Source of the DNA: an uncultured Acidobacteriota bacterium
Lineage (GTDB): Bacteria > Acidobacteriota > Thermoanaerobaculia > UBA5066
Reading direction: 5' to 3'
DNA length: 64,000 nt
NCBI GenBank assembly: GCA_963721385.1
Contig: CAVRJB010000008.1
Location: forward strand, 42,074 to 106,073
Part shown: piece after piece, positions 41,808 through 60,745 of the stretch
How positions within the stretch are numbered: the first letter of the stretch is position 1
Layout: every line of letters starts with the position of its first letter
Made by a program: the position numbers and the translations under genes
Notes under the pieces: model-generated
Told to the model about the DNA's origin: nothing
The model's input: only the letters and a program-made list of their open reading frames with translations
Database searches by the model: none

Positions 41808-43021
41808 GCCCGGCAAAGAAGCCCTCCGGTGCGGTAACCGTCCGGATGTACAACGTCGGCTTCGGCGACGCGTTCCTCCTGACGTTTCCCGGCTCGCCGC
41901 CGAGAAAGGTCCTCGTCGACTGCGGCTCCCACAACGCCGGCCCGGGCCCCGAGCCAATCGGCGACGTGGCCGCCCGGATCGTCCAGGACGTCACGGGAGC
42001 CGACGGCGTCCCGAAGATCGACGTCGTCATCGCCACGCACCGCCACCGGGACCACGTCGCGGGCTTTTCGTCGCCCGTCTGGAAGGACGTGCGCGTTGGC
42101 GAGGTCTGGATGCCGTGGACCGAGGAGCCTGATGACCCCGACGCAAAGAGAATCCGCGAAGCACAGAGTTCCGGCGCGGCCAAGCTCCACGCGGCCCTCC
42201 GGCTCTCCGGCGCCCCCGACCACGTCCTCGACCTCGTCGCCAACTGCCTCACGAACGAAAAGGCGATGGCGACGCTCCACGGCGGCTTCGCCGGGAAGCC
42301 CCACCGCTTCTTCCTGCCGAAAAAGGGCGCGGAGAGAAAGCCCTTCACCCCGGCCGCACTTCCGGGCGTCACCGTCCACCTCCTCGGCCCGTCGCGCGCC
42401 CCCGACGTCATCCGCGACATGGAGCCGCCGAAGGGAAAGGGCTATCTGCGGCTCTCGGGCGAGGCCGACGGCGGCGCCGGCCTGCCGTTCCGCCGCCGGT
42501 GGGCCATGACGCCGAAGGAGTTCGACGCCACCGCCGCCTTCGCGCACCTCAGGCTTCCCGAGAAGTACCGCCGGGCCGTCGACGCCCTCGGCGAGGACGA
42601 CGACCTCGCGGTCGCCGTCGCCCTCGACGCCGCGGTCAACGGCACCAGCCTGATGCTGATGTTCGAGGTCGGGAAGGCGTTTCTCCTCTTCCCCGGAGAT
42701 GCGCAGTGGGGGACGTGGAACGCGGTCCTCTCGGACGAATCGGCCGTCCAGCTCCTGAAGAAGACCGTCTTCTGCAAGATCGGCCACCACGGCAGCCACA
42801 ACGCCACGCCGCGGGAGTTCGTCGAGAACGACCTCTCGACGTTCTCGGCCATGGTCTCCACCCGCCCGATGCCCAATTGGAAGTTCATTCCGAAGCCGGC
42901 GCTGATGGCCGCGCTTCACAAGAAGTCGAACGCCGTCGTCCGAAGCGACCAGCTCTCGTCCGTCCCCTCCGGCTTCACGAAGCACGGAAACATCTGGGTG
43001 GAGACGAGGATCCCGGTCTGA
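41804..43021 (+). CDS. MBL-fold metallo-hydrolase (ComEC/DNA-internalisation-like MBL subgroup)
   Basis: VRMYNVGFGDAFLL..VLVDCGS, HRHRDH (HxHxDH) and a distal KIGHHGSHN motif. Start overlaps the upstream stop (ATGA). Confidence 0.65.
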   Translation: MSPAKKPSGAVTVRMYNVGFGDAFLLTFPGSPPRKVLVDCGSHNAGPGPEPIGDVAARIVQDVTGADGVPKIDVVIATHRHRDHVAGFSSPVWKDVRVGEVWMPWTEEPDDPDAKRIREAQSSGAAKLHAALRLSGAPDHVLDLVANCLTNEKAMATLHGGFAGKPHRFFLPKKGAERKPFTPAALPGVTVHLLGPSRAPDVIRDMEPPKGKGYLRLSGEADGGAGLPFRRRWAMTPKEFDATAAFAHLRLPEKYRRAVDALGEDDDLAVAVALDAAVNGTSLMLMFEVGKAFLLFPGDAQWGTWNAVLSDESAVQLLKKTVFCKIGHHGSHNATPREFVENDLSTFSAMVSTRPMPNWKFIPKPALMAALHKKSNAVVRSDQLSSVPSGFTKHGNIWVETRIPV

Positions 43022-43031
43022 GAGGAGCGCC

Positions 43032-43548
43032 ATGGCCCAGTTCACCGTCAACGCCGGCCGCTTCGACCCGTACAAGAACTTCAAGTTCCGCGTAAAGTGG
43101 GATGGCAAGGTCGTCGCCGGCGTCAGCCGCGTCAGCCCGCTCCGGCGCGTCACGGAGGTCATCGAGCACCGCGAGGGAGGCGACCCGAACACGTCCCGGA
43201 AGTCGCCGGGAAGGACCCAATTCGACGCCATCACCCTCGAGCGGGGGGTCACGCACGACCCGGCCTTCGAAGAGTGGGCGAACCAGGTCTGGCGCCTCGG
43301 CGCCGGCGCGGGCGCCGAGGTCGCTCTGGCCAACTTCCGCAAGGACATCGTGCATCGAGTTCTGCAACGAGGCCGGGCAGGTGGCCCTGGCCTACAAGGT
43401 CTACCGCTGCTGGCCCTCGGAGTACCAGCCTCTTCCGGCCCTCGACGCCGACTCCGGGGCGGCCGCCTTCCAGTCGATCACCCTCCAGCACGAAGGGTGG
43501 GAGCGCGACACCTCGGTCCAGGAGCCGCAGGAACCCAAGTCGACGTGA
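43032..43548 (+). CDS. phage T4 gp19 / eCIS (Afp1/Pvc1-like) tail tube protein homologue (TIGR02241-like); apparent +1 indel near 43357
   Basis: N-terminus has FKFRVKWDG...IEHREGGDPNTSRKSPGRTQFDAITLERGVT. The C-terminus (IEFCNEAGQVALAYKVYRCWPSEYQ...ITLQHEGWER) lies in the frame of ORF 43102..43548. Deleting one base in gtgcatcgag joins them as ...FRKDIVIEFCNEAG... Confidence 0.65.
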
Positions 43549-43943
43549 GCGCCGGCGGCGCGGATCCGCCGGCGCGTCTCGACGTCCGGAAGACGCTCCG
43601 CCCGGGCGAGCGGGGAACGAGGAAGTTGCTCAAGCTCTACGGCAACGACCTCGTCTCCGTCCGCTACCGCCACGACGAGGCCGCCGGCGTCCGCCTGAAG
43701 ACGGCCGAGATCGTCGTCGCCCGGGTCAAGCTCAAGCGGTCGAGGTCGCTCCCCCCGAGCGCCCTCGTCTACGCGAAGGTCGAGCCGTGGGAGAAGCCGC
43801 TGCACGAGAAGCTCAAGAAAGCTGGCGCGCGGTGGGACCCGGGACTACGATTGTGGCGGATGCGCTACGACACGGCCCTCGCCCTGGGGCTCCGACGGCG
43901 GATCCTGACGTCCCTTCCGAAGCCCGAAAGCGGTCACCGGTAG
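43545..43943 (+). CDS. small Lys/Arg-rich hypothetical protein (candidate DNA-binding protein)
   Basis: GTG start overlaps the tail-tube stop (GTGA). Lys-rich, non-repetitive composition argues for real coding sequence. Its last codons overlap the first downstream direct repeat. Confidence 0.4.
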   Translation: MSAGGADPPARLDVRKTLRPGERGTRKLLKLYGNDLVSVRYRHDEAAGVRLKTAEIVVARVKLKRSRSLPPSALVYAKVEPWEKPLHEKLKKAGARWDPGLRLWRMRYDTALALGLRRRILTSLPKPESGHR

Positions 43944-44008
43944 GAACTTAAATGCGGTCACCCGTAGGAACATTCGCCCGAAACAGACCAAAAGCGGTCA
44001 CCGGTACC
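43930..44008 (+). repeat. three direct repeats of an imperfect palindrome GCGGTCACC(G/C)GTAGG (spacing 24 and 40 nt)
   Basis: Read directly from the sequence. Copies begin at about 43930, 43954 and 43994. Each has a CGGT(C)ACCG core with dyad symmetry. Confidence 0.6.
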
Positions 44009-44032
44009 CACCTGGGGGTGCCGTCTAATACT

Positions 44033-44039
44033 AGTTAGG
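44033..44039 (+). other. isolated GTTAGGC integron-type core site (GTTRRRY), 25 nt downstream of the direct repeats
   Basis: Sequence match to the canonical attI/attC R' core. No upstream attC-like stem is present, so it may be an attI-like or attG-like site. Confidence 0.35.
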
Positions 44040-44451
44040 CGGCGAATGGACGAACGCGGCCTCGTCGCTGGCTCGACGTCCGACACCTTGGCTCGAGATT
44101 CGAAGCTCTACTCCGGCCGACCGCGTCGAGCACTGCGCCTTATCGCGCGGTGAGCCGGTGGAGCCGTCTCCTCGACAATTCCCCGCTGACCGGCTTACTC
44201 GAGCTTGCTGAGCGCACTCGCGCTCAGCTTTCTCCACGGCATCGACGGCGGCCTAGCCCGCGTCTCACTCGCAGATCTGGAGGTGGCGTCAGCCCGCCAC
44301 AGTGTAGGCGTATCGCTCGTCAGCATCGCCTCGCAGGGCAGCATCGCGCCGAGCACTCCTTGCGGCCGTCGAGCCACGTAAGTCGCGGCACGCTACCCGA
44401 GGGCGAGCGGCTCGCGCTGCAGCGGCAGCTTGCGGCCGAGCGGGCGTGGCC

Positions 44452-44483
44452 ACCTAACAGCGCGCTGCAGCGGACTCGGAGGT
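44452..44483 (+). other. 5' half (R''-L'') of an integron attC-like site, interrupted by the IS3 element
   Basis: ACCTAAC (RYYYAAC) then GCGCTGCAGCGGACTCGG. Homologous to the 5' halves of the intact copies at 46397 and 46987. Confidence 0.6.
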
Positions 44484-44527
44484 TGCTTCGGTATCGTTGA
44501 CACTCTCAGCTAACTAGAGAGGTCGCG

Positions 44528-44884
44528 ATGGGAAAAGCAGGACCCCGGAGAGTCAGAAGCTACAGCCAGGAGTTCAAGCTGCGGGCCGTTCAGCTGAGCC
44601 GGCAGCCGGGAGTCCTGGTCCGGGACGTGGCGCTTTCACTGAGCATTCACCCCTTCATGCTGTCGCGCTGGCGCAAGCAGGCCCGGGACGGCCAGCTGCG
44701 CGGTGCCTTGCCGGCTCTGGACCTGAAAGCCGTGGGTGAGCTCCAGCGGCTGCGAGAGGTCGAGCGCGATTACAAGCGGCTGAAGATGGAGCATGAGCTC
44801 CTAAAAAGAGCGATCCGGTTCGCCCGCGAGTTACGGGGGACGTCTTCGCGTTCCTCGAGGCGAACCGGAGGTTCTTCCCGGTGA
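44528..44884 (+). CDS. IS3 family transposase OrfA (HTH domain)
   Basis: SYSQEFKLRAVQL...MLSRWRKQ and a leucine-zipper-like C-terminus. A run of A's followed by G (CTAAAAAGAG, a likely slippery site) lies near 44810. Confidence 0.8.
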   Translation: MGKAGPRRVRSYSQEFKLRAVQLSRQPGVLVRDVALSLSIHPFMLSRWRKQARDGQLRGALPALDLKAVGELQRLREVERDYKRLKMEHELLKRAIRFARELRGTSSRSSRRTGGSSR

Positions 44885-45711
44885 GCCTGATGTGCAGGAG
44901 GTTCGGCGTCACGCGGGCCGGGTTCTACGCCTGGCGACGCCGTCGTCCGAGTCGCCGGACGTGTTCTGACGCGGCGATGACCGAACGGGTTCTGGCGGTG
45001 TTCCAGGAGGCGAGGGGGCTTTACGGCAGCCCTCGAGTGACCCGGGAACTCGGGCGGCGAGGCGTTTCGGTTGGCCGACGCCGTGTCGCGCGTCTGATGC
45101 GCCTGGCACAGCTCCAGGGCCGCTCGGCCCGTCTTTACCGCCGGTCGCGCGTGGGTCAGAAGGCGTTCTATCGGCTGCATCCGAACACGGTCCACGGTCT
45201 CACGACGACCGGCCCGGACCAGCTCTGGGTGGGAGACGTCACGTACGTCCGGGTCGCCGGACGCTGGCGGTACCTGGCCGTCGTGATGGACCGGCACTCC
45301 CGCAGGGTCCTCGGATGGAGCCTGGGCCGGAATCGGGACGCTTCGCTGACCCGGCGCGCCCTCACTCACGCCGTCCGATGGCGCCGTCCGCCTGCGGGCC
45401 TGACGTTTCACAGCGACCGCGGGATCGAGTACTCGGCCGTCCACCTCGGAGACGAACTGTCCCGCCGGGGTTTCGTCCAGAGCATGAATCGCCCGCGGCA
45501 GATGAACGACAACGCCCACATGGAGTCGTTCTTCCATTCGCTGAAGACCGAGTGGCTCTTCGGGATGACGTTCCAGAAGGACTCCGACCTCCGGGCCGCT
45601 CTCCTCGACTACGTCGGCTTCTACAATCGGCGGCGCCTCCATTCGTCCCTTGGATACCTTCCCCCGGCCGTGTTCGAAGCCCAGGTCCCTAACCACACGG
45701 GTGTCAACTGA
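44881..45711 (+). CDS. IS3 family transposase OrfB (DDE integrase catalytic domain)
   Basis: LWVGDVTYV...HSDRGIEY...NAHMESFFHSLKTE gives the D, D35E motifs of rve-type integrases. Confidence 0.85.
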   Translation: MSLMCRRFGVTRAGFYAWRRRRPSRRTCSDAAMTERVLAVFQEARGLYGSPRVTRELGRRGVSVGRRRVARLMRLAQLQGRSARLYRRSRVGQKAFYRLHPNTVHGLTTTGPDQLWVGDVTYVRVAGRWRYLAVVMDRHSRRVLGWSLGRNRDASLTRRALTHAVRWRRPPAGLTFHSDRGIEYSAVHLGDELSRRGFVQSMNRPRQMNDNAHMESFFHSLKTEWLFGMTFQKDSDLRAALLDYVGFYNRRRLHSSLGYLPPAVFEAQVPNHTGVN

Positions 45712-45720
45712 ACCGAAGCA

Positions 45721-45763
45721 AGTTCCCTCGCTACGCTCGCCGCTGAGCTCGATATCGTTAGGC
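45721..45763 (+). other. 3' half (L'-R') of the IS-interrupted attC-like site, ending in canonical GTTAGGC
   Basis: CGCTCGCCGCTGAGCTCGATATCGTTAGGC is homologous to the 3' halves of the other copies. The next ORF starts 21 nt downstream. Confidence 0.6.
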
Positions 45764-45783
45764 GATTCTTAGGGGAGGACATC

Positions 45784-46347
45784 ATGCGTTCACAGGCCTT
45801 CCTTTCGAGCAATTGTTCGCGACGGACGATTACCGGGCTCGCAGTGCTTGTTCTTCTGGCTGCCACTCCGGCGCACGCTCAGGTGTCGTGCAAGCTGCTC
45901 CAGCCGGTAGAGCTTGAGTCGATCCTGAAGGAGTGGGCCGCAGGAGGGAAAACGGCAAAGTTCTCCGGCTCCACCGACAACTCAAGCGGCATAGCCTTCG
46001 ACGCCTGCAGCAGCGAAATCGTGAGACCGGGTCAAGGGAATCTGCAGATCAGGGTCGTCGTTGTCAAGAATCTCCCCATGAGCGGCGGCGACGCCATACG
46101 CACGCGAAACGCAGCTTTGGCACGCGAGGGCCAGTGGAAGGTCAAGGGCGCGCAATTTGAGGAAAAGGCAGTGGGCAAAGCGATGTGCACCCTGTATGGC
46201 AGGCCCGGAGTGGCAGCACATTCGGTGTGCGCCATCCCCAGCGCGAATGGTTATGTCGAGGTGGAGGTGATTACTCCTTTTCAGAAGGTGATCGTATCAA
46301 TGGATGCCGTAGGGACGCTGGTGCAGAAGGCGAACAGCCGCTTGTGA
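45784..46347 (+). CDS. cassette ORF: secreted hypothetical protein (signal peptide, 4 Cys), lower GC
   Basis: 187-aa ORF with an AGGGGAGG RBS, followed by an attC-like site. Confidence 0.55.
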   Translation: MRSQAFLSSNCSRRTITGLAVLVLLAATPAHAQVSCKLLQPVELESILKEWAAGGKTAKFSGSTDNSSGIAFDACSSEIVRPGQGNLQIRVVVVKNLPMSGGDAIRTRNAALAREGQWKVKGAQFEEKAVGKAMCTLYGRPGVAAHSVCAIPSANGYVEVEVITPFQKVIVSMDAVGTLVQKANSRL

Positions 46348-46396
46348 CTAACAAGGTCCATATTGACGTGAAACGGTCCCGGAACAAAAGTCGGGC

Positions 46397-46457
46397 GTCG
46401 AACAACACGCTGCAGCGGACTCGCTTGCGCTCGCCGCTGAGCGCGGTATCGTCAGGC
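46397..46457 (+). other. integron attC-like recombination site (61 bp; R'' GTCGAAC ... R' GTCAGGC)
   Basis: Inverted core sites, an internal imperfect palindrome with an extrahelical G (GCTGCAGCGG vs CCGCTGAGC), and a position immediately 3' of an ORF. Confidence 0.6.
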
Positions 46458-46526
46458 CGACAGACGCGCGTCACCGCCGATAACGCCCCGTGTGGCCCAT
46501 ATCACTCGAACCCCAGGAGGAACACC

Positions 46527-46977
46527 ATGATCGTTGAAGCACAGGTAACCATCAACGGATCCAAGGCGGCGATCTGGGCGGCAATCACCAACATCGAGAA
46601 CGCCTCGGAAACCATCAGCGGAATCGAAAACATTGAGGTCCTCGAAAAACCGGCAAACGGGCTCGTCGGACTAAGGTGGCGAGAGACCCGAATGCTATTT
46701 CGGCAAGCCAGCTACCGCGGAAAAGTGGATCACCGATGCTGCTGAGAACGAGTTCTACAAAACCAAAGCAGAAAGTGATGGATTTGTATTCTTAACCACC
46801 AAGAGTATTTCAGAGAGCAGTGGCGGCATTACGTTGGCTGAGTCTCATGATTCCAAGCCTCAAGGCATCGTTGCAAAACTAATGTCGATCCCAATGCTGT
46901 TTCTGTTCAAGGGCGTGGTGAAGAAGGCCCTCCTGCAAGACCTAAACGATATTAAGTCCGCAGTTGAACAGAAATGA
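46527..46977 (+). CDS. cassette ORF: SRPBCC (Bet v1 / polyketide-cyclase-like) protein; apparent +1 indel in a TTT run near 46700
   Basis: N-terminal part in frame 1 (MIVEAQVTINGSKAAIWAAI...RETRMLF). The remainder (GKPATAEKW...KKALLQDLNDIKSAVEQK) is in the +1 frame. GC is only about 45 %. Confidence 0.6.
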
Positions 46978-46986
46978 TCGATTGCG

Positions 46987-47046
46987 GCCTAACGACGGCA
47001 TGCAGCGGACGCGCTTCGCTCGCCGCTGAGCGCGGTATCGTCAGGC
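46987..47046 (+). other. integron attC-like recombination site (60 bp; R'' GCCTAAC ... R' GTCAGGC)
   Basis: Same architecture as 46397..46457, with about 85 % identity to it. Confidence 0.65.
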
Positions 47047-47092
47047 CGCAGAAGAAACATTCCTCTCACCACCACCGCGCATCGGAGGTCAC

Positions 47093-47479
47093 ATGAAACG
47101 AGTCACTGGTATCGGGGGCATCTTCTTCAAGGCGAAAGACGCTCCATCACTGCAGGCTTGGTACAAGCGGCACTTGGGAATCGATGTCCAGGCCTGGGGC
47201 GGAGCTGCCTTCGATTGGACCGACGCCGAGGGCAAGCCGGTTGCAGGCACAACTGCCTGGCTCATCGATCCGCAAGAAAGTAATCACTTTGCTCCGAGCT
47301 CTGCTTCCTTCATGGTCAACTACCGAGTGGAAGACCTCCACGCCTTGGTCAAGGTCTTGAAGGAAGAAGGCTGCAATGTGCTCGAGAAGATTGACGAATC
47401 CGAGTATGGGAAGTTTGCCTGGGTCATTGATCCAGAGGGAAACAAGGTCGAGCTATGGCAGCCGCCACAAGGCCAATGA
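47093..47479 (+). CDS. cassette ORF: VOC (glyoxalase/bleomycin-resistance) family protein
   Basis: 128 aa with the VOC beta-alpha-beta-beta-beta fold pattern (GIGGIFFKAKD...). Confidence 0.7.
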   Translation: MKRVTGIGGIFFKAKDAPSLQAWYKRHLGIDVQAWGGAAFDWTDAEGKPVAGTTAWLIDPQESNHFAPSSASFMVNYRVEDLHALVKVLKEEGCNVLEKIDESEYGKFAWVIDPEGNKVELWQPPQGQ

Positions 47480-47510
47480 GCAGGCTCGTTACGCACGGCC
47501 GCGAACTGCG

Positions 47511-47582
47511 GCCTGACACTTCGTTCAACCGGACGCCTTGCGGCGGGCTGCCGCAAGGCGCCGGTTAACTCGAACGTCAGGC
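47511..47582 (+). other. integron attC-like site of a different sequence class (72 bp; R'' GCCTGAC ... R' GTCAGGC; internal perfect palindrome GCCTTGCGGCgggctGCCGCAAGGC)
   Basis: Perfectly inverse core sites and a central hairpin. It sits between two + strand ORFs. Confidence 0.6.
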
Positions 47583-47616
47583 AGCACACCGATCCGCAGC
47601 GCCTGAGGTACCACTC

Positions 47617-48090
47617 GTGACAAATATCCGCACGTCGAGTTCAGTCCTTCTTGCGGCAGCGATGAGCTCGTTCGCAATCGCTCTCGTTCACCTCGGCATC
47701 ATGTTCATGGGCGCTCCGGGCTACCGTTACTTCGGTGCGCCGGGACTCGCCGTTCAAGTGGAGCGTGGGTCCTCGGTGCCCGCGTTTCTCTGTATTGGCG
47801 TCGCCGCGCTCCTTGGCCTTTGGGGTCTCTACGCCCTCGCAGGGGCAGGCCGGATCCGACCGCTGCCTCTGCTTCGCGCAGGCATCCTTCTCATCGGTAC
47901 TATCTACCTCCTCCGGGGGTTGCTCGGGCTCCCGCAACTCGTCTGGGTACTCGCCGGGCGCAACGTGGCACCCCTCCGATACCTCCTCTTCTCTCTGGTG
48001 TCGGGCGTCACTGGCGTGCTCTATCTCGCCGGCCTCTTTGGACTTCGGCGTGCCACACGCGCCACCTTCGAGGAGCACCGTGCTGCCTGA
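47617..48090 (+). CDS. cassette ORF: small integral membrane protein (4 TM), unknown function
   Basis: GTG start 35 nt after the R' core. The TGA stop is embedded in the next GCCTGAC core. Confidence 0.5.
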   Translation: MTNIRTSSSVLLAAAMSSFAIALVHLGIMFMGAPGYRYFGAPGLAVQVERGSSVPAFLCIGVAALLGLWGLYALAGAGRIRPLPLLRAGILLIGTIYLLRGLLGLPQLVWVLAGRNVAPLRYLLFSLVSGVTGVLYLAGLFGLRRATRATFEEHRAA

Positions 48091-48174
48091 CCCCTCGCTC
48101 CAGCGGACGCGCTAGCGATCGCCACCGGCTCGTGGCGGGAATTTGCTCACGACGTGCTGGCGCGCAAGTGACGG
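48085..48174 (+). other. degenerate attC-like site (R'' GCCTGAC overlapping the stop codon; 5' arm homologous to the 46397/46987 copies; R' decayed to GTGACGG)
   Basis: GCTCCAGCGGACGCGCTAGCGATCGCC aligns to GCTGCAGCGGACTCGCTTGCGCTCGCC. Confidence 0.45.
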
Positions 48175-48202
48175 TGGCGCCTTCGGGGCGCTCCTCCTGA
48201 CC

Positions 48203-48685
48203 TCACTTCGCCGCGGGTGGCGCGGGAGGGAGCGAGGTCCGGGAGTAGAGGCCGACCGGGTGACCGGCCGGATCCACGACGAGGCCGATGGCCCCGGTGC
48301 CGTCCGTCAGATTGAAGGGAAATCCGGGAATGACCGTTCCCCCCAGCTCTTTCGCCTTCCTGCAGCTGGCCAGGATGTCGATCACCTGGACGTAGACGAC
48401 GCCGTTGAAGGGGCTGATCTTCCCCTCCGCGACCCGCAGCGTCCCGATGGCGGTGCCGCTCGCGACGATCTCCGCCGCCAGGTCGGTGCCCGGCACCGGG
48501 TTGAATTTCCAGTCGAAGAGCTTGCCGTAGAATTCCTTCGCCTGTGCGAGGTTGGTCGTGGAGATGTCGAACCAGGCGATGCGCCCCGGTCCGACATCGG
48601 CGGGGGGAGCCTTCTGCGTCGCCGCCGGAAGCGGTCCGGTCAAGAGGGTCATGACCATGGTGATCGCCGAGATCGCGTTTCGCAT
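48203..48685 (-). CDS. VOC (glyoxalase-like) family protein with signal peptide, in inverted orientation relative to neighbouring cassette ORFs
   Basis: 160 aa with a VOC fold pattern. Confidence 0.65.
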   Translation of the reverse strand: MRNAISAITMVMTLLTGPLPAATQKAPPADVGPGRIAWFDISTTNLAQAKEFYGKLFDWKFNPVPGTDLAAEIVASGTAIGTLRVAEGKISPFNGVVYVQVIDILASCRKAKELGGTVIPGFPFNLTDGTGAIGLVVDPAGHPVGLYSRTSLPPAPPAAK

Positions 48686-48699
48686 CGCCGCCCTCCTGG

Positions 48700-48779
48700 C
48701 TCACATTCGCGGGGGAGGGCCCGAATGCTAGCACCGGGCAGAAAGCCCCTCTGCGCCGGGCGCGAGGTCGTCGGGCGTC
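48700..48779 (+). other. possible decayed attC-like 3' arm (GCGCGAGGTCGTCGGGCG, compared with consensus GCGCGGTATCGTCAGGCCG)
   Basis: Partial similarity only. Confidence 0.3.
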
Positions 48780-48852
48780 ACAAGTCATCCCTCGGCGCTC
48801 CCGTGGTCGGTCGAATCCTCGACCCCGGCCAAACGTCGAACTGAAAGGCGAG

Positions 48853-49305
48853 GTGATCATGCCCACAGGTACCGTCCGGCTTCACCGCGTGCTCCGTGCC
48901 AAGCCCGACCGCGTCTATCGGGCCTTCCTGGACGCCGACGCCATGGCCAAATGGCTGCCACCCTACGGTTTCACCTGCAAGGTCCACCACCTGGATGCCC
49001 GGGTGGGCGGCACCTACAGGATGTCGTTCACGAACTTCGGCACGGGTCACGGCCACTCCTTCGGCGGCGAGTACAAGGAGCTGGTGCCGAACGAGAAGCT
49101 CCGCTACACGGACAAGTTCGACGACCCGAACCTGCCCGGGGAGATGCTGACGACGGTGACCCTGAAGCCCGTGTCGTGCGGCACCGAGCTGAACGTCGTG
49201 CAGGAGGGTCTGCCGGAGTTCATTCCCGTCGAAATGTGCTATCTCGGCTGGCAGGAATCGCTCGAGCAGCTCGCGAAGCTCGTCGAGCCCGAGATTCCGG
49301 GGTAA
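48853..49305 (+). CDS. SRPBCC superfamily protein (AHSA1 / activator-of-Hsp90-ATPase-like)
   Basis: 150 aa with a conserved N-terminal RVYRAFLDADAMAKW motif. Confidence 0.65.
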   Translation: MIMPTGTVRLHRVLRAKPDRVYRAFLDADAMAKWLPPYGFTCKVHHLDARVGGTYRMSFTNFGTGHGHSFGGEYKELVPNEKLRYTDKFDDPNLPGEMLTTVTLKPVSCGTELNVVQEGLPEFIPVEMCYLGWQESLEQLAKLVEPEIPG

Positions 49306-49367
49306 CGGGGTTCCGCCGGATTCCTTGCTCCGGCGGACGACGCGCGGGAGACCGAAGGAGGCAGGGG

Positions 49368-49862
49368 ATGGATCCCGAGACGGTTCAGGAACTGCAGGCG
49401 TACAACACGTGGGCGAACGGGCGGATCCTGGACGCGGTGGCGCGCCTCGATTCAGACGGGTTCAAACGCGCCCTCGGCGGGAGCTTTCCGTCTGTCCAGG
49501 CCACGCTGACGCACATGGTCTGGGCGGAGTGGCTCTGGCTCGAGCGGTGGCAGGACCGCTCGCCGAAGGAACTGTTCGCGGCGGAGGAGTTTCCGTCCGT
49601 CCCGGACCTGAGGGCCCGGTGGAGCCCGGTCCAGGCCGCGCAGAAGACCTTCGTCGCGGCGCTGACGCCGGAGAGGCTTCAGCGGGTCGGCCGCTACACG
49701 AACCGGAAGGGGGAGACGTGGGAGTACGCCCTCTGGCGGCAGATCCACCACCTCTTCAACCACTCGACCTACCACCGCGGCCAGGTGACCAACATGCTCC
49801 GGCTTCTCGGCGCCCAGCCGGCGGTGACGGACTTCCTGGACTACTGGGACGAAGGCCGGTAG
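49368..49862 (+). CDS. DinB/YfiT-like (DinB_2) metal-dependent four-helix-bundle protein
   Basis: NTWANGRIL...HMVWAEWLW...HHLFNHSTYHRGQ pattern. Confidence 0.7.
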   Translation: MDPETVQELQAYNTWANGRILDAVARLDSDGFKRALGGSFPSVQATLTHMVWAEWLWLERWQDRSPKELFAAEEFPSVPDLRARWSPVQAAQKTFVAALTPERLQRVGRYTNRKGETWEYALWRQIHHLFNHSTYHRGQVTNMLRLLGAQPAVTDFLDYWDEGR

Positions 49863-49961
49863 GCGTGCGACTCCGGACGACCGTGGACAGATCAACATGA
49901 TCAGGAAGAGGATGAAGCCGTAGCTGACGGCCTCCGGTCCGCCGGGGGGAGGGCTTGATCC

Positions 49962-50885
49962 GTGCACATCCTGCAGGCCATCGGGAAGACGTCTCTCGTA
50001 AGGCTTCGCAAGGTCGTCCCGCCTGGCTGCGCGGAGATCCACGTGAAGCTGGAGTGGGAGAACCCCACGGGCAGCATGAAGGACCGGATGGCGCTGGCCG
50101 TGATCTCGCGGGCCGAGGAGGACGGGCGCCTCCAGCCGGGAGACACCGTCGTCGAGTACACGGGGGGGAGCACGGGCGCGTCGCTGGCGCTCGTCTGCGC
50201 CGCCAAGGGCTACCCGATCCGGCTCGTCACGTCCGACGCGTTCAGCCGGGAGAAACGGGATCACATGGCGGCCCTCGGTGCAGAGCTGACGATCGTCCCG
50301 AGCGAGGGCGGGCTCAGCACCAGAAAACTGTTCCAGGACATGATCGAGACCGCCCGCAGGATGAGCCTGGAGCCTCACACCTACTGGATCGACCAGCTCA
50401 ACAACCGGGACAGCATCGCGGGCTACACCTCGCTGGGCGAGGAGATCTGGAGCCAGACGACCGGAGAGGTCGACGCCTTCGTTCAATCCGCCGGTACGGC
50501 GGCTTCTTCGCGCGGGGTCGCCACGGTGCTGAAGCGGTACAAACCGGGCGTCGCGATCGTCGTCGTCGAACCCGCGGAATCCTCGGTGCTGCGGGGAGGC
50601 CCGGCCGGTGCTCACGGGATCGAAGGAATCGGGATCGGCAGCACTCCCCCGCTCTGGGAGCCGACGCTCGTGGACGAGATCCTGTCCGTCAGCACGGACG
50701 ACGCGGAAAAGATGGCGAGGCGGCTCGCGCGGGAGGAGGCTCTCTTCGCGGGGACCTCGTCCGGCGCGAACGTCGTCGCCGCGATCCGGGTCGCCGAGCG
50801 GCTCGGTCCGGGCGCACGGGTGGTCACGTTGATGGTCGACTCCGGCCTGAAGTACCTGAGCACCGACGTCTACAGGCGAAAGTAG
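49962..50885 (+). CDS. PLP-dependent cysteine synthase family protein (CysK/CysM-like)
   Basis: PTGSMKDR lysine motif and a GSTGASLA-like glycine loop. GTG start. Confidence 0.75.
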   Translation: MHILQAIGKTSLVRLRKVVPPGCAEIHVKLEWENPTGSMKDRMALAVISRAEEDGRLQPGDTVVEYTGGSTGASLALVCAAKGYPIRLVTSDAFSREKRDHMAALGAELTIVPSEGGLSTRKLFQDMIETARRMSLEPHTYWIDQLNNRDSIAGYTSLGEEIWSQTTGEVDAFVQSAGTAASSRGVATVLKRYKPGVAIVVVEPAESSVLRGGPAGAHGIEGIGIGSTPPLWEPTLVDEILSVSTDDAEKMARRLAREEALFAGTSSGANVVAAIRVAERLGPGARVVTLMVDSGLKYLSTDVYRRK

Positions 50886-50913
50886 CCCGCGATATCGTTC
50901 CCGAAGATCCCCG

Positions 50914-51733
50914 ATGATCATCGGCCTCGCGTCGCCGCGCATCGCCTCGACCCTCGACGAGGGCCTGGAGAAGATCGAGCGGCTCCTGTCCGAAGCTTCG
51001 GCCCGCGGAGCGGAGATCGTCTGCTTCCCGGAAGCCTATCTCCCGGGCCTCCGGGGACAGGACTTCGAGGTCTTCCCCTTTGACGAGATGCAGCAGGAAC
51101 GGGCGTTTCGGACCGTGGCGCAGTGGGCGCGAACGTACGCGGTCGCCACGATCCTCGGGATGGAGAGGCTCAGCCCGGCGGGCAGGCAGATCGTCGCCTT
51201 CGTCATCGACGCCCAGGGCGAGCTTCAGGGATATCAGACCAAGAACCAGCTCGACCCGACCGAAGACAGGTTCTATGTGCCCGGAGATACCCGGCGACTC
51301 TTCGAGATCAACGGGGTCAAGTTCGGAGTGGCGATTTGCCATGAAGGCTGGCGCTATCCCGAGACGGTGCGATGGGCGGCGGCGCGGGGCGCCAAGATCG
51401 TCTTTCATCCCCAGCACACGGGGACCGAGCGCGACGGCGTCCGGCTGACGGAGTGGGGCGCGGCCGGCGAATCCCTACTACGAGAAGGCGATGACGATGC
51501 GCAGCCTCGAGAACACGATCTACTTCGCCAGCGTCAATTACGCGTTGCGCTTCCAGGAATCGGCGACGAGCCTCATCGACCCGACAGGCAAGTGCCAGGC
51601 GTATCTCCCCTATGGGCAGGAAGGCCTGCTGGTGCAGGCCATCGACGTCGAGGAGGCCACCGGATTGCTGGCAATCCGATATGCCCCCGAGCGCCATCGG
51701 GAATTCCTCTCCGACGAAAGGAGGGGCTCATGA
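50914..51733 (+). CDS. carbon-nitrogen hydrolase (nitrilase superfamily); apparent +1 indel near 51475
   Basis: E-K-C triad context (CFPEAY..., ...GVAICHEGWRYPE). The C-terminal part (NPYYEKAMTMRSLENTIYFASVN...) continues in the frame of ORF 51491..51733. Confidence 0.65.
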
Positions 51734-51776
51734 CGGTTTCCTCACGCCAGATGGCGCTGAAGTCATCGTCGACCGT

Positions 51777-52139
51777 ATGAGGCCTCGCGAGCTCGTCCGG
51801 GCCTGGGTCGAGGCCTTCAACCGGGCCGATGCCGACGCGCTCGCGGCCTTCTACGCCGAGGACGCCGTCAACCACCAGGTCGCCGAGGCCCCGGTGAAGG
51901 GCCGCGAAGCCATCCGCGAGATGTTCGCCTCCGGGTTCGCGTCGGCGACCATGGTCTGCCTCGTGGAAAACCTCTTCGAGGACGGCGAGTGGGCGATCCT
52001 CGAGTGGCGCGATCCGCTCGGCCTCCGGGGCTGCGGCTTCTTCCACGTGGTGAACGACAGGATCGTCTTCCAGCGAGGCTACTGGGACAAGCTCTCCTTC
52101 CTGAGATCCCGGGGCCTGCCGATGCCGGAAGATCCGTGA
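51777..52139 (+). CDS. NTF2-like / SnoaL-like protein
   Basis: 120 aa with a LVRAWVEAFNRADADALAAFYAEDAV pattern. Confidence 0.6.
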   Translation: MRPRELVRAWVEAFNRADADALAAFYAEDAVNHQVAEAPVKGREAIREMFASGFASATMVCLVENLFEDGEWAILEWRDPLGLRGCGFFHVVNDRIVFQRGYWDKLSFLRSRGLPMPEDP

Positions 52140-52158
52140 GCCCCGCAGGAGGTCCGCC

Positions 52159-52518
52159 ATGGAACCGGTCAACCTGAAGGACAAGCTCGCTCTCTTCTCG
52201 ACCCGTTGGGACCCCAAGATCGTCGGAGAGCTGAACGGCCAGCACGTGAAGCTCGTGAAGTTCCTCGGCCCGTTCATCTGGCACCGGCACGAGAACGAGG
52301 ACGAGCTGTTTCTCGTCCTCCGGGGCTCGTTCGAGATGGAGTTCCGGGATCGCACCGTTCCCGTTCGGGAAGGGGAGTTCCTGATCGTCCCCCGCGGCGT
52401 CGAGCATCGCCCCGTCGCCGAATCCGAGGTCCACGTCCTCCTCTTCGAGCCGGTCTCCACGCTCAATACGGGCGACGTTCGGGGACCGCTCACCGTGAGC
52501 CAACCGGAATGCATCTGA
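52159..52518 (+). CDS. cupin domain protein
   Basis: HRHENEDELFLVLRG...VPRGVEHRP are the two cupin motifs. Confidence 0.7.
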   Translation: MEPVNLKDKLALFSTRWDPKIVGELNGQHVKLVKFLGPFIWHRHENEDELFLVLRGSFEMEFRDRTVPVREGEFLIVPRGVEHRPVAESEVHVLLFEPVSTLNTGDVRGPLTVSQPECI

Positions 52519-52539
52519 GTCTCTCCGTCCCGGGACCCG

Positions 52540-52590
52540 TTTGCGCCGGCCGCTGTTCGCGGTATCGTCACGGGGCACCAAAACGCACCG
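52540..52590 (+). other. remnant 3' arm of an attC-like site (GCCGCTGTTCGCGGTATCGTCACGG) upstream of the next ORF
   Basis: Homologous to the GCCGCTGAGCGCGGTATCGTCAGGC arms at 46430 and 47020. Confidence 0.4.
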
Positions 52591-52614
52591 CGGGGAGACA
52601 GGAGGGACCGAAGC

Positions 52615-53031
52615 ATGTCCGAGGCCCAGAACGCAGCTCTCGCGCGGCGCGTCATCGACGAGGCCTTCAACAACAAACGCTCGGAGGCGGTCCGCGAGCT
52701 CCTGCACCCGAAAGCGGTCGGCCACCTCGAGGGGTTCGAGGTGCGTGGGCCGGAGGGCTTCCTCCCCGCGTGGGCCAGTTCTCTCGGCGCGTTTCCCGAC
52801 CTCAAGGTCATCATCCAGGACCTCATGGCGCAGGGGGACTCCGTCGCGGTCCGGTGGACGGCCTCCGGCCTGCATACCGGGCCGCACCTCGGCATCGCGC
52901 CGTCCATGAAGCTCGTCGCGTTCCGCGGCATCACGTGGCTCCGCTTCTCGGAGGGGAAGATCATCGAATGGTGGGAATCCTGGAACCAGGGCCGGCTCTT
53001 CAGCGAGCTGCAGCAGGCCCGCAAGGACTGA
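52615..53031 (+). CDS. SnoaL-like ester cyclase family protein
   Basis: 138 aa. ALARRVIDEAFNN...AVRWT pattern of the ester cyclase / SnoaL_2 family. Confidence 0.6.
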   Translation: MSEAQNAALARRVIDEAFNNKRSEAVRELLHPKAVGHLEGFEVRGPEGFLPAWASSLGAFPDLKVIIQDLMAQGDSVAVRWTASGLHTGPHLGIAPSMKLVAFRGITWLRFSEGKIIEWWESWNQGRLFSELQQARKD

Positions 53032-53035
53032 AGGC

Positions 53036-53398
53036 GTGAACAAGGCCACCACCAGCATCCGCGTCTTCGGGATCTACCTCCTCGTCCTCGGCCCGCTCCT
53101 CATCCTCGTCCCGTCCGTCGTCCTCGGCCCGTTCGGCATTCCCGTGCCGTCCGATGTCTGGATCCGCGTCGTTGGCGTCCTCGCCGCCGTCCTCGGGTAT
53201 TACTACCTTCAGGCGTCGCGGTTCGGGCTCGTCCCGTTCTACCGGGCGACGGTCGCGGGACGCGGCTTCGTCTTCGTCTCGTTCCTCGCGTTCGCGCTGC
53301 TCGGACTCGCCCCGGCGACGCTGGTCCTCTTCGGAGCGGTCGACCTCGCCGGCGCCGCCTGGACCGCTCTCGGCCTCCGCTCGGCGCCGGGCGCCTGA
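53036..53398 (+). CDS. small membrane protein (3-4 TM), unknown function
   Basis: GTG start 5 nt after the upstream stop. Hydrophobic throughout. Confidence 0.45.
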   Translation: MNKATTSIRVFGIYLLVLGPLLILVPSVVLGPFGIPVPSDVWIRVVGVLAAVLGYYYLQASRFGLVPFYRATVAGRGFVFVSFLAFALLGLAPATLVLFGAVDLAGAAWTALGLRSAPGA

Positions 53399-53588
53399 CC
53401 CCCCGACGCAACCCGGAACTCGCCCCGTCCATGGCGGACGGGAACGGGCCTGTCCCATGCCGCGTCTGCATTTCGCCGTCGTCTTCGTCGCCCTCGCGGG
53501 CCTCGTCTTCGGCGCCTGCGTCGCGTCCGGGTCCCCGGCCCTTCCCCGCTGACGTCCAGGCCGATCTCGGTCAGAATCGGAAGCCGTC

Positions 53589-54047
53589 ATGCCCGAGCCC
53601 TTCCGTAAGAGTTTCCGCGTCCGCTGGGGCGATGTCGACTTCAACGGCCACATGGGAAACAGCGCGTATCTCGACCTCGCGAGCGACGTCCGGATGCTCT
53701 TTTTCGACGAGCACGGCTTTCCCGCGCGGAGGTTCCAGGAGCTCTCGATCGGACCCGTCATTCAGCGCGACGAGCTGGAGTACTTCCGGGAGCTGCGCCT
53801 CCTCGAGGAGATCACGGTGACCCTGGCGCTCGCGGGCCTCTCGGCGAATGGCGCCCGCTTCCGGCTCCGGAACGAGTTCGTCTCGGCCGACGGGACGCCC
53901 GCCGCCCGGGTCACGAGCCACGGTGGGTGGCTCGACCTCGCGGCGCGGAAGCTTGCGCCTCCCCCGAAGGAGCTCGCCGACGCCCTTCTCGCCATGGCCC
54001 AAACCCCCGACTTCGAGGAAATCCTCCCGCGGAAGGAGAGCCGATGA
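53589..54047 (+). CDS. acyl-CoA thioesterase, hotdog fold (YbgC/4HBT-like)
   Basis: FRVRWGDVDFNGHMGNSAYLDL is the hallmark 4HBT N-terminal motif. Confidence 0.7.
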   Translation: MPEPFRKSFRVRWGDVDFNGHMGNSAYLDLASDVRMLFFDEHGFPARRFQELSIGPVIQRDELEYFRELRLLEEITVTLALAGLSANGARFRLRNEFVSADGTPAARVTSHGGWLDLAARKLAPPPKELADALLAMAQTPDFEEILPRKESR

Positions 54048-54511
54048 AACCGAACCCTCGAACCGCCACGCTGCTCTTCCTCGTTGTGACGCTCGGCGGG
54101 GCATCGCCCCGGGCCCGGGCCGCCGAGCCCGCCGCGACCGCTCCCCCGGCTGACCGGCCCTACGTCGTCGAGTACTACTACAAGGCGAAGTGGGGGTACG
54201 CGGACGAGTTCTTCCGCCTCTTCCGGAAGAACCACCTGCCGGTCCTCCGGAAAGAGATCGAGATGGGGCGGATCCTGCAGGTGACGGCGGCGGCTCCCCG
54301 CTACCACGCGACCGAGGACGGCCGCTGGGACTACCGGGTCACGATCGTCTTCAAGAATGCCGCCGTCGCGACCGACGCCTTCGACCCCGAGACGATCACG
54401 AAGCAGCTCTACCCCGACCAGGAGACGTTCAAGCGGGAAGAGCAGCGGCGGTTCGAGATCCTGCTTGCGCACTGGGACCTCCCTTTGAAGGAAGTCGACC
54501 TGGGCAGGTAG
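54044..54511 (+). CDS. secreted hypothetical protein
   Basis: Signal peptide. ATG overlaps the upstream stop. No family recognised. Confidence 0.45.
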   Translation: MKPNPRTATLLFLVVTLGGASPRARAAEPAATAPPADRPYVVEYYYKAKWGYADEFFRLFRKNHLPVLRKEIEMGRILQVTAAAPRYHATEDGRWDYRVTIVFKNAAVATDAFDPETITKQLYPDQETFKREEQRRFEILLAHWDLPLKEVDLGR

Positions 54512-54554
54512 CGGTCTTCGACGACGTCGAGTGGAACGAACCTCGTGCAGCCCG

Positions 54555-54597
54555 GCTCGCCCCGCTTCGCCGTGCGCGATATCGTCGGAGCCGGGGG
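54555..54597 (+). other. remnant attC-like 3' arm (CTCGCCCCGCTTCGCCGTGCGCGATATCGTCGGAG) upstream of ridA
   Basis: Homology to the other copies. R' decayed to GTCGGAG. Confidence 0.35.
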
Positions 54598-54604
54598 AAA
54601 CACC

Positions 54605-55003
54605 ATGGCCCAGCGGCTCAACGTGTCGAGTGGCGGTCCGTGGGAAGCGCGCGTCGGCTATTCGCGCGCCGTCCGCATCGGGCCTCACGTCTTCGTGGCG
54701 GGCTCCACGGCGATGACGCCGGAAGGGCTCGTCGGCGAAGGAGACCCATATCGGCAGGCGGTCCAGGCTCTCCGGACGATCGAGGCCGCGCTCGCAAAGG
54801 CCGGGGCGGCGCTCGGGGACGTCGTGGCGACGCGGATGTACGTCACCGACATCTCCCATTGGGAAGCCGTGGGGCGCGCGCATGGCGAGATCTTCGGCTC
54901 CATCCGTCCGGCCGCGACGATGGTCCAGGTCGCGGCGCTCATCGACCCGAGGATGCTCGTCGAGATCGAGGTCCAGGCGTACGTGCCCGACCTCCGCGGC
55001 TGA
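54605..55003 (+). CDS. ridA: RidA family (YjgF / enamine-imine deaminase) protein
   Basis: 132 aa with a conserved ...TRMYVTDI...EIEV pattern. Confidence 0.75.
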
Positions 55004-55011
55004 CGGCCGGG

Positions 55012-59983: not shown

Positions 59984-60745
59984 GTGCCGCGCCTCTCGGT
60001 CACGATCATCGCGAGGGACGAGGAGGACCGCCTCCCCGCGGCCCTCGCGTCGGCGGCGTTCGCCGACGAGATCGTCGTCGTCGTCGACGCCGCGTCAGCC
60101 GACCGGACGGAGAGTGTCGCGCGCGCCGCGGGGGCGCGCGTCCTCGTCCGCGCCTTCGGCGGCTTCGGCCCCCAGAAGAACGCCGCGGCCGACGCGGCCT
60201 CGCACCCCTGGGTCCTGAACCTCGACGCCGACGAGGTCGTGATGCCGCCGCTCGCGGCGGAGATCACGGAGACGATCGAGCGGGACGTGGCCGCAGCCTT
60301 CCGGGTCCCGATTCACCTCGAGTTCCTCGGCCGGGCGCTCCGCTTCGGACGCCACACCGTCTCGGCGCCCGTCCGCCTCTACCGCCGCGACCGCGCACGC
60401 TTCTCCGACGAAGCCGTCCACGAGAAGATCGTCCACGAAGGGCCCGCGCCTCGACTCCGGGGGACGATCGTCCACCGCTCGTACCGGGACCTCGCGCACT
60501 ACCTCGAGAAGTTCGACCGCTACACGACCCTCGGGGCGGCCTCGCGTTTCGCGGACGGGGAGGCCCCGTCCCGCTTTCCGGCCCTTCGCTTCGCGTTCGA
60601 CGTCCTCGACCGCGCCGTTCTCCACCTCGGCCTCCTCGACGGCGTCCCGGGCCTCACGTTCGCGGTCCTCTCCGCGGGAAACACCTACTTCCGTAACCGG
60701 AAGCTCGAAGAGCGGCGCCAGGCGGCGACGGGAAACGCCCCGTGA
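59984..60745 (+). CDS. family 2 glycosyltransferase
   Basis: SVTIIARDEE...LDADE (DxD) pattern. Confidence 0.7.
   Translation: MPRLSVTIIARDEEDRLPAALASAAFADEIVVVVDAASADRTESVARAAGARVLVRAFGGFGPQKNAAADAASHPWVLNLDADEVVMPPLAAEITETIERDVAAAFRVPIHLEFLGRALRFGRHTVSAPVRLYRRDRARFSDEAVHEKIVHEGPAPRLRGTIVHRSYRDLAHYLEKFDRYTTLGAASRFADGEAPSRFPALRFAFDVLDRAVLHLGLLDGVPGLTFAVLSAGNTYFRNRKLEERRQAATGNAP

Follow-up and report, generated by a model that had tools for sequence, protein, structure and literature searches.

An integron gene-cassette array in an Acidobacteriota chromosome

The DNA analyzed here, referred to below as the window, is a stretch of 64,000 nucleotides (nt) from an uncultured Acidobacteriota bacterium (GTDB lineage Thermoanaerobaculia; UBA5066), positions 42,074 to 106,073 of contig CAVRJB010000008.1 in GenBank assembly GCA_963721385.1. 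At about 44 kb of this Thermoanaerobaculia-like chromosome lies an integron gene-cassette array without a nearby integrase gene. From left to right, the locus comprises a small open reading frame (ORF) of 132 amino acids (aa), three direct repeats, an attI core ending in ...TAATACTAG|TTAGGC, and five cassettes, C1 to C5 (Table 1; positions are those of the window). The intact array can be demonstrated from 44034 to 48113. A preliminary description made from the sequence alone had proposed an array of the CALIN type (cluster of attC sites lacking integrase) in a high-GC, non-proteobacterial chromosome, and this central claim is borne out by an attC family linked to integrases, by mobile cassettes, and by G|TT cassette boundaries. 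In all, five independent lines of evidence back the identity of the array: the distribution of the repeats, the integrase link, the canonical cores, the position of the crossover, and cassette mobility. Its nearest relatives are found in Acidobacteriota/Thermoanaerobaculia metagenome-assembled genomes (MAGs). The GC content of the window is approximately 70%, with a dip to 0.55-0.61 between 46 and 48 kb, and the profile agrees with the lower GC first noted for the cassettes (0.54-0.65 in C2-C5 versus 0.69-0.73 in the flanks).

Table 1. Features of the cassette array and its surroundings. IS, insertion sequence; CM, covariance model.
Feature	Position	Strand	Description
Small ORF, 132 aa	43545..43943	+	Function unknown; its GTG start and the stop of the preceding gp19-like gene overlap (GTGA)
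Direct repeats AAAGCGGTCACCGGTAGGAAC	43927-47, 43951-71, 43991-44011	+	Three copies of 21 nt; repeat family D13; candidate accessory binding sites
attI core GCCGTCTAATACTAGTTAGGC	44019..44040	+	Predicted crossover between G44034 and T44035
Cassette C1	44035..45757	+	No convincing ORF; attC1 interrupted by an IS
attC1	44452-44477 + 45727-45763	+	Split by the 1249-bp IS3-family element
IS3-family IS, 1249 bp	44478..45726	+	orfA 44528-44884, orfB 44881-45711; at the attC1 apex; CTC target duplication
Cassette C2	45758..46451	+	187-aa secreted protein of unknown function (45784-46347) and attC2
attC2	46397-46457	+	GTCGAAC...GTCAGGC; CM E = 7e-18 (in training set)
Cassette C3	46452..47040	+	Frameshifted SRPBCC gene (46528-46978) and attC3
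attC3	46987-47046	+	GCCTAAC...GTCAGGC; CM E = 3e-16 (in training set)
Cassette C4	47041..47576	+	VOC/glyoxalase gene (47093-47479) and attC4
attC4	47511-47582	+	Distinct class, GCCTGAC...GTCAGGC; CM E = 1.5e-10 (outside training set)
Cassette C5	47577..48113	+	157-aa membrane protein (47617-48090) and 5' half attC
5' half-site after C5	48085-48113	+	R'' GCCTGAC 48085-48091, L'' CAGCGGACGCGCT; repeat family D2
Distal block	48114..55010		Small, mostly co-oriented genes; possibly former cassettes
attC 3'-arm relic CGCCGGCCGCTGTTCGCGGTATCGTCACGGGG	52544..52575	+	Between cupin and SnoaL genes; 25/32 identity; CM E = 0.3

attC sites of the window

A repeat analysis of 43.5-56 kb recovered two families of arms. 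The 3' arm, CGCTCGCCGCTGAGCGCGGTATCGTCAGGC, is found at 45734, 46428 and 47017 and, in weaker form, at 52544, and the 5' arm, RYYYAAC-N8-GCAGCGGAC, at 44448, 46393, 46983 and 48081. A 17-mer from the 3' arm, GCGCGGTATCGTCAGGC, has four matches at up to 3 mismatches where 0.6 are expected. The attC-like repeats recognized from the sequence alone are real, and the two arm families assemble into four full sites and one half-site. Inverse R''/R' cores stand at ORF 3' ends, at a spacing within the 55-140 nt expected of attC sites, with the R'' boxes ACCTAAC, GTCGAAC, GCCTAAC and GCCTGAC, and with R' boxes reading GTTAGGC once and GTCAGGC three times. Two details of these sites had been overlooked. 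The first is the splitting of attC1 by an IS3-family element; removal of the element and of one CTC copy restores a 60-nt attC, ACCTAACAGCGCGCTGCAGCGGACTCGCTACGCTCGCCGCTGAGCTCGATATCGTTAGGC, that is almost identical to one in the related locus L007. The second is that the site after the fifth cassette is a 5' half only, and its full-site CM score is not significant (E = 3.1).

The second class of site, proposed for 47511-47582 on account of its GCCTGAC/GTCAGGC cores, is confirmed; its single-strand fold (-33.1 kcal/mol, z = -9.5) has an R box, spacer, L box, terminal stem and single bulged base and is far more stable than those of shuffled sequences. The three remaining sites (class A) show the expected layout, with an R box, a 6-bp L box and a bulged base on the R''-L'' arm, and no stability above shuffles (z = -0.3 to -1.4). 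Rfam at gathering thresholds gave no attC match in the window; since it reported no family there at all, this result is uninformative, and we know of no attC family in Rfam.

An attC family linked to integrases and mobile cassettes

To place these sites, one genome per GTDB species was scanned with the 3'-arm pattern. This search returned 79 stretches, nearly all of them from Acidobacteriota MAGs and many with the label Thermoanaerobaculia; often several copies follow one another on the same strand at intervals of a few hundred bp. Within 584 kb of those loci, a CM built from 77 sites finds 386 sites with a typical spacing of 500-600 bp, again on one strand, and it still scores attC4, which is of the other sequence class and outside the training set. 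The R'' box of 83 unique clade sites is RYYYAAC (mostly GCCTAAC), and the R' box is GTTAGGC in 74 and GTCAGGC in 9. RNAalifold applied to the attC alignment gave the L-box stem only; its pairs are nearly invariant because the search pattern fixed the 3' arm, which makes covariation uninformative. Chromosomal attC sites of Acidobacteria have been reported as conserved enough for a taxon-specific covariance model (Ghaly et al. 2021, PMC8352920), and one family likewise dominates the Thermoanaerobaculia MAG arrays here, while the window adds the second class at 47511-47582 and the minority GTC form of R'. With that model in print since 2021, the view that integrons are poorly documented outside Proteobacteria is outdated, and the bare finding of this array is of an already known sort: Acidobacteria integrons with clade-specific attC sites and integrons with a same-strand integrase have both been documented.

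Arrays of this same attC family adjoin integrase genes in relatives. A tblastn search, in which an IntI1 sequence served solely as the query, identified adjoining IntI homologs 54-57% identical to IntI1, two of which score 459-468 bits on the NCBIfam model TIGR02249 'integron integrase' (cutoff 265). In the complete integrons of these relatives intI, the small ORF, attI and the cassettes all lie on one strand, with intI immediately upstream of the small ORF.

The boundaries of the cassettes are those of integron recombination. Across 140 consecutive attC pairs, 77 of them informative, the R'' box of a site was compared in its pairing with two R' hexamers, that at the start of the same cassette and that at the junction of the site itself. 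The former pairs better in 57 cases and worse in 15, as a G|TT crossover predicts. Cassettes C4 and C5 both start with TCAGGC and end with the R'' box GCCTGAC, whereas copies of the VOC cassette in other places have TTAGGC/GCCTAAC, so that the change at one end is compensated at the other; the start hexamer of C5 pairs perfectly with its own R''. A VOC protein identical over its 128 aa is indexed in 33 collection blocks, and its gene stands in no fewer than three distinct neighborhoods (after an amidase, after RibD_C, and before an IS), flanked each time by canonical attC sites, and homology to the window starts at the R' hexamer, with an unrelated attC upstream. The same cassettes are thus found in different arrays, as further seen in the recurrence of the C1 body in L079 and in an order that differs between the window, L034 and L086. 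We conclude that the cassettes are mobile and bounded at the canonical G|TT position.

These observations also bear on whether the repeats might belong to a genome-wide family of REP/BIME-like palindromes (repetitive extragenic palindromes/bacterial interspersed mosaic elements) unrelated to integrons, which the preliminary description had named among the outcomes that would undo it. The sites are indeed GC-rich, imperfect and intergenic palindromes in a 70% GC genome, and three of them have unremarkable fold z-scores. The copies in the window, however, are confined to 3.7 kb (44.4-48.1 kb) apart from one relic, on one strand and at ORF 3' ends; the copies in relatives form arrays beside TIGR02249 integrases; and neither R''/R' complementarity at the level of the cassette nor the presence of one cassette in different arrays fits such a family, which makes this explanation scarcely conceivable.

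The head of the array

The 21-nt core GCCGTCTAATACTAGTTAGGC is repeated, with few changes or none, in many of the loci retrieved. Four of these are L036, L044, L007 and L091, in which it follows a same-strand intI and small ORF and precedes the first cassette; by this homology and placement it is identified as the attI of the integron lineage to which the window belongs. Homology of the window with L086 and L034 stops at 44040-44043, a synteny break at G|TTAGG. Together, the shared core and the synteny breaks point to an attI at the head of the array, such as a complete integron would have, and the GTTAGGC at 44034, previously passed over, belongs to this attI. Among 70 metagenome loci, 21 have a related core (GCCGTCTAAT...GTTAGnn, with up to 4 substitutions) 17-84 nt past the stop of the small ORF.

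The three direct repeats that precede the core are candidate accessory binding sites, judging from their likeness to the direct repeats DR1 and DR2 of attI1, which bind IntI1. Other loci have two or three repeats of their own in the same place, with a GTAGG motif in common and otherwise different sequence. The attI1 of class 1 integrons resembles the arrangement in the window in having a core that ends in GTTAGGC preceded by direct repeats within about 110 nt; the two differ in their repeats, as those of the window, three in number and 21 nt long, show a GTAGGAAC-like motif and not copies of GTTRRRY, and the repeats vary by locus while the core is conserved. Environmental attI sites have direct repeats in some cases and lack them in others (PMC3146285).

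Absence of intI and the nature of the left flank

No match to IntI1 or to five IntI proteins of the clade was found by tblastn in the 64-kb window (best E 0.04-0.05, spurious), in agreement with the initial impression that it contains no tyrosine recombinase. There is accordingly no intI within 44 kb to the left or 16 kb to the right of attI, and the left 44 kb hold no intI remnant. Nor does intI occur within 10 kb upstream in L086, L034 and L087, three assemblies that share the left flank. The slot in which intI would be expected is occupied by a gene similar to T4 gp19, whose stop overlaps the GTG start of the small ORF. Further to the left are genes for a metallo-beta-lactamase (MBL)-fold protein, an HExxH protein, dipeptidyl peptidase IV (DPP-IV), M16 peptidases, a Ser/Thr kinase, a Mur ligase and FtsEX.

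The left flank is ordinary chromosome and not an inserted operon. We considered a contractile-injection operon (gp19-like tail tube, MBL-fold and HExxH proteins) inserted between intI and attI and rejected it, as the neighbors are M16 peptidases, DPP-IV and a kinase; the inserted operon supposed earlier is not supported, these neighbors being ordinary chromosomal genes conserved in three relatives. The same evidence bears on the suggestion that the locus is an ordinary complete integron with intI just outside the window or behind such an operon. The window spans 64 kb only, and intI in this clade normally lies immediately upstream of the small ORF. That slot is taken by the overlapping gp19-like gene, however, the 44 kb to the left consist of housekeeping-type genes for peptidases, a kinase, a Mur ligase and FtsEX, and the same flank is conserved in L086, L087 and L034. 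We therefore regard an intI just beyond the left end as highly improbable.

Cassette turnover at an attI without a local integrase

The three assemblies with the same integrase-less left flank are L086 (ERZ25039492 contig_72877; 95.7% nucleotide identity), L034 (CAWGDR01, 'uncultured Acidobacteriota bacterium MFD02199.bin.2.63'; 87-93% nucleotide identity) and L087 (ERZ25039597 contig_73058; small ORF 90% identical), with flank identities of 87-96%. Collinearity with all three ends at 44040-44043, at the predicted attI crossover. Beyond this point, L086 begins with a different cassette of 521 bp and is without both the IS and the SRPBCC cassette; in all other respects it remains collinear to 56 kb. 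The proximal cassettes of L034 are others as well, followed by C2, the VOC cassette and, further on, the SRPBCC cassette. In L087 the whole array differs over more than 10 kb, and IS110-family genes and a VOC cassette are part of it. As the relatives share the flank without intI and differ in their cassettes, the loss of intI or the creation of the orphan platform predates the split of these lineages, and the cassettes, chiefly those next to attI, changed afterwards. The attC of C2 is itself of the short class in the window (61 nt, 46397-46457) and of the long class in L086 (81 nt, 11683-11763), the longer form having 20 nt more at its center. This difference implies that attC centers undergo conversion or indels and that processes besides the R' crossover also act.

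Orphan platforms are not restricted to this position. The MAG CAWIUK01 holds both an orphan platform (L016, with 6 kb upstream devoid of intI) and a complete integron (L036), and L088 is a further orphan platform that adjoins gpsA. Small ORF and attI core are thereby retained without intI at three or more different chromosomal sites (window, L016, L088). These platforms speak for an IntI supplied in trans, as does the survey of Cury et al. (2016), in which half of the CALINs were in genomes encoding IntI elsewhere.

Taken as a whole, the locus is probably a platform that receives cassettes without an integrase of its own, of the same-strand chromosomal integron type, on which IntI would act in trans. 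The involvement of a trans-acting IntI is inferred because relatives with the same integrase-less flank carry different first cassettes, and comparison of these sequences indicates that the array probably still exchanges cassettes by means of an integrase encoded elsewhere. Under this model, cassettes would be inserted at attI (attI x attC) and excised by attC x attC recombination by IntI supplied in trans, and transcription entering from upstream, by way of the small ORF and attI, would express their genes. More speculatively, IntI could be recruited to attI with help from the small basic protein, the direct repeats or both.

Several points weigh against this model. The attC family, the homology of attI, the boundaries and mobility of the cassettes and the absence of intI near attI are direct observations; the source genome is represented by a 64-kb window, and a trans-acting intI in this organism is deduced from its relatives. 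The folding energies of the class-A attC sites equal those of shuffled sequence, three R' boxes in the window have GTC in place of the near-universal GTT (a variant of about 10% of clade sites), and the CM was built from this clade with attC2 and attC3 in its training set. A sigma-70 consensus scan of 43000-48300, which is blind to non-canonical promoters, gave no match near attI. With attC1 disrupted by the IS and the attC of the fifth cassette truncated, part of the array is immobilized, and the differences among relatives could come from homologous recombination or transformation across highly similar attC/attI sequences.

Carried further, this last point yields the main rival, a fossil array, which lost its integrase, undergoes no site-specific recombination, and differs among relatives by homologous recombination, gene conversion or transformation acting on attI/attC homology. 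The attC sites are indeed nearly identical over 32-80 nt, the two sites that border the SRPBCC indel have the same 3' arm, and the two length classes of the C2 attC are not explained by a crossover at R' alone; two attC sites of the window are damaged, three genes are frameshifted, and transformation-driven shuffling of cassettes is described for chromosomal integrons (PMC12614218). Against it, the breakpoints with all three relatives fall at the attI G|TT, where only the shared core of about 21 nt would be available to the left-hand partner of other integrons. Furthermore, none of the three relatives has the attI-proximal cassette of the window, as expected if insertion proceeds by attI x attC recombination, and orphan platforms at several chromosomal sites keep both the small ORF and the attI core. 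We consider a fossil array unlikely and favor a platform served in trans.

Relation to known integrons

Under the IntegronFinder definition (at least two clustered attC sites and no intI within 4-10 kb) the locus is a CALIN, as four attC sites and one half-site lie within 3.7 kb. Its architecture is that of a same-strand sedentary chromosomal integron platform minus intI. The chromosomal position is fixed, as seen in the left flank common to L086, L087 and L034, and the attC sites are homogeneous, with three of the four complete sites belonging to one family; the more than 19 attC sites of sedentary integrons are not reached in the window, and the adjacent integron-integrase gene of a complete integron is lacking from its 64 kb. 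Same-strand ('inverted integrase') integrons are a type recognized by IntegronFinder users; they are associated with Spirochaetes and others, and are common in Thermoanaerobaculia/Acidobacteriota, the array of the window being of this type without its intI. The relatives share with them the order intI-attI-cassettes, clade-homogeneous attC sites and a cargo of small enzymes and proteins of unknown function; the window differs in lacking intI, and the clade adds an ORF of about 110-150 aa between intI and attI.

The likeness to CALINs (Cury et al. 2016, PMC4889954) is close: the attC sites are less than 4 kb apart, no intI is nearby, the number of sites is small at about five, and the array contains an IS. 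In that survey 83% of CALINs had fewer than 6 sites, 38% had neighboring IS elements, half were in genomes encoding IntI elsewhere, and most had no nearby intI pseudogene. CALINs are not defined by attI, however, nor usually examined for it, and the window differs in keeping a recognizable attI and an intI-linked small ORF at its head, and in a chromosomal position conserved in at least three relatives with differing cassette content. Three features go beyond what is known. The orphan attI is still accompanied by its conserved small partner gene; platforms of this kind recur, both at several chromosomal sites and in 38% of the informative metagenome loci; and cassettes show evidence of turnover next to an attI without a local integrase.

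This locus bears on the origin of CALINs and on whether they are dead remains or functioning stores of cassettes. The window and its three relatives, with one integrase-less attI and differing proximal cassettes, make the action of IntI in trans on orphan platforms directly testable. The clade attC family and attI core can moreover be used for mining the cassette pools of soil Acidobacteriota.

A small protein family between intI and attI

The small ORF of the window has homologs of the same length, 83-95% identical, that back its GTG start, and in the complete integrons of the clade these homologs are situated between intI and attI; in L091-L094 the stop of intI overlaps the start of the small ORF. 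The protein has no Pfam, NCBIfam or PADLOC match. A profile search at E <= 1e-3 nevertheless gathers 2429 clusters (representatives at 50% identity), typically of 110-160 aa. Of 80 metagenome loci, 60 were informative, having enough upstream sequence or an IntI match. IntI homologs occur in 37 of these and are directly upstream of the small ORF in 33 (23 on the same strand, 10 divergent); the remaining 23 (38%) have at least 1 kb upstream without an IntI homolog.

Since the small protein is basic and tightly linked to attI, a role at attI, such as DNA binding, is a reasonable guess from its sequence and position. A broader proposal is that small ORF, direct repeats and attI core form a 'docking platform' complete in itself, belonging to an integron architecture that is widespread and so far undescribed, in which the basic protein of about 130 aa is an unrecognized accessory factor at attI and orphan copies let one integrase service several arrays per genome. 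The small protein would then bind the direct repeats to recruit or orient IntI, or drive the expression of cassettes. We hold this proposal to be tentative and, in its full form, somewhat doubtful. The literature searched contained no description of a conserved ORF of about 110-150 aa between intI and attI. Elsaied et al. (2011) reported 'first cassettes' with complete ORFs but without attC, one of them of 396 bp with an isoelectric point of 9.65, and these may be the same gene. In any case, the locus exposes a large uncharacterized protein family that is physically coupled to intI and attI in environmental integrons. Should the small protein indeed function at attI, it would be a new component beyond IntI, attI, the cassette promoter Pc and host factors.

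Elements inserted in attC sites

The IS3-family element in attC1 encodes HTH_Tnp_1, rve and HTH_21 domains (Pfam) and is bounded by 26-nt inverted repeats (I14). Insertions at the same nucleotide (after GCAGCGGACTC, with CTC duplication) and in the same orientation are found in L034, L068, L030, L015 and L079, and a related element in L041, L053 and L076. The arrays that host the IS at this position of the attC apex differ in R'' and in neighboring cassettes. These sequences suggest that the element targets attC specifically. Known attC-targeting elements, namely IS1111-attC elements of the IS110 family and group IIC-attC introns, are similar in their fixed position and orientation inside attC; the element of the window differs in being of the IS3 family (HTH_Tnp_1 and rve), for which, to our knowledge, attC targeting has not been described.

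The left end of the IS, CGGTATCGTTGAC, resembles the attC 3' arm CGGTATCGTCAGG. In L047, L076, L081 and L082 the 5' half of an attC is replaced at the same central position by another element ending ...GGATTTTCCGACTGCG...GGCCTTCTCATCCCATCTC, which could be a further attC-targeting IS or the end of a group II intron. Genes for IS110-family transposases (DEDD_Tnp_IS110/Transposase_20), a family that includes the known IS1111-attC elements, lie inside the arrays of L087 (11388-14398) and L088 (3656-6239).

Cassette contents

Cassette C1 may be non-coding or encode a small peptide. Its 116-aa ORF (44150-44500) is Arg/Pro-rich with a composition unlike that of proteins, and its body (44041-44452) matches a cassette in L079 with 73% identity across 412 nt. 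The C2 protein has no Pfam or PADLOC match, and its cassette is present in L034 and L086. The SRPBCC gene of C3 has a weak Pfam match to Polyketide_cyc2; this cassette is absent from L086 and occupies a different position in the L034 array. Pfam searches over the array and the genes that follow it confirmed the cargo listed in the preliminary description: VOC (two, one inverted), SRPBCC/AHSA1 (two), DinB, SnoaL (two), cupin and RidA, together with a 4HBT thioesterase, a PALP enzyme and a CN-hydrolase. The suggestion that the uncharacterized cassettes might serve phage defense found no support, as a PADLOC screen of their proteins gave no match, novel systems being outside its reach.

One frameshift each interrupts the gp19-like gene (43032-43548), the SRPBCC cassette gene (46528-46978) and the CN-hydrolase gene (50914-51735). 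The gp19-like and SRPBCC genes have an unbroken frame in L034, where the small ORF is frameshifted; such genes may be either pseudogenes or the result of indel errors in long-read assemblies. The gp19-like gene (PF06841, E = 1e-41) is a lone T4 gp19-type tail-tube gene within 39987-43548, where it follows the MBL-fold gene and that of a 606-aa HExxH protein without a Pfam match. Further tail or sheath genes are lacking in its vicinity, and the trio is conserved in L086, L087 and L034.

The distal block

To the right of C5, the genes of the distal block encode, in order, an inverted VOC protein, AHSA1, DinB, PALP, CN-hydrolase, SnoaL, cupin, SnoaL, a membrane ORF, a thioesterase, an EthD-like protein and RidA (Pfam). 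The array had at first been extended to 55010; past 48113 this extent is unproven, as the clade CM gave nothing significant in the distal block (E = 0.2-5, comparable to matches scattered over the whole window). The block has a host-like GC content of 0.675 and is syntenic in L086 at 96-99% identity. Decayed 3' arms had been described at three places, of which one stands: the relic at 52544-52575 matches the 3' arm of the window at 25 of 32 positions, where 200 block shuffles reached a maximum of 24, and no 5' arm matches it. The candidates at 48747 and 54561 were rejected, with 21 of 32 positions being a typical shuffle maximum. A further CM match at 61151-61216 (E = 2e-4, under a rough calibration) is a probable false positive, located inside a polysaccharide-deacetylase-like ORF (60742-61527) and without AAC/GTT cores. 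The notion of domesticated distal cassettes thus retains one significant attC relic and no other significant attC in the block, and old domesticated cassettes are plausible for 48.1-52.6 kb at least. A homolog of the thioesterase is present in another array, L019.

A 74%-identical homolog of the AHSA1 gene of the window (48853-49305) is found in L068 (7362-7811), upstream of intI and outside the array. Within and after the ORF at 53036-53398, a 370-bp segment (53131-53500) that is absent from L086 is bounded by a direct repeat of about 41 bp and lies in a region of 18-nt periodic repeats coding for a Leu/Val/Pro-rich membrane ORF; this difference looks like slippage or a repeat-mediated deletion and not like an integron event.

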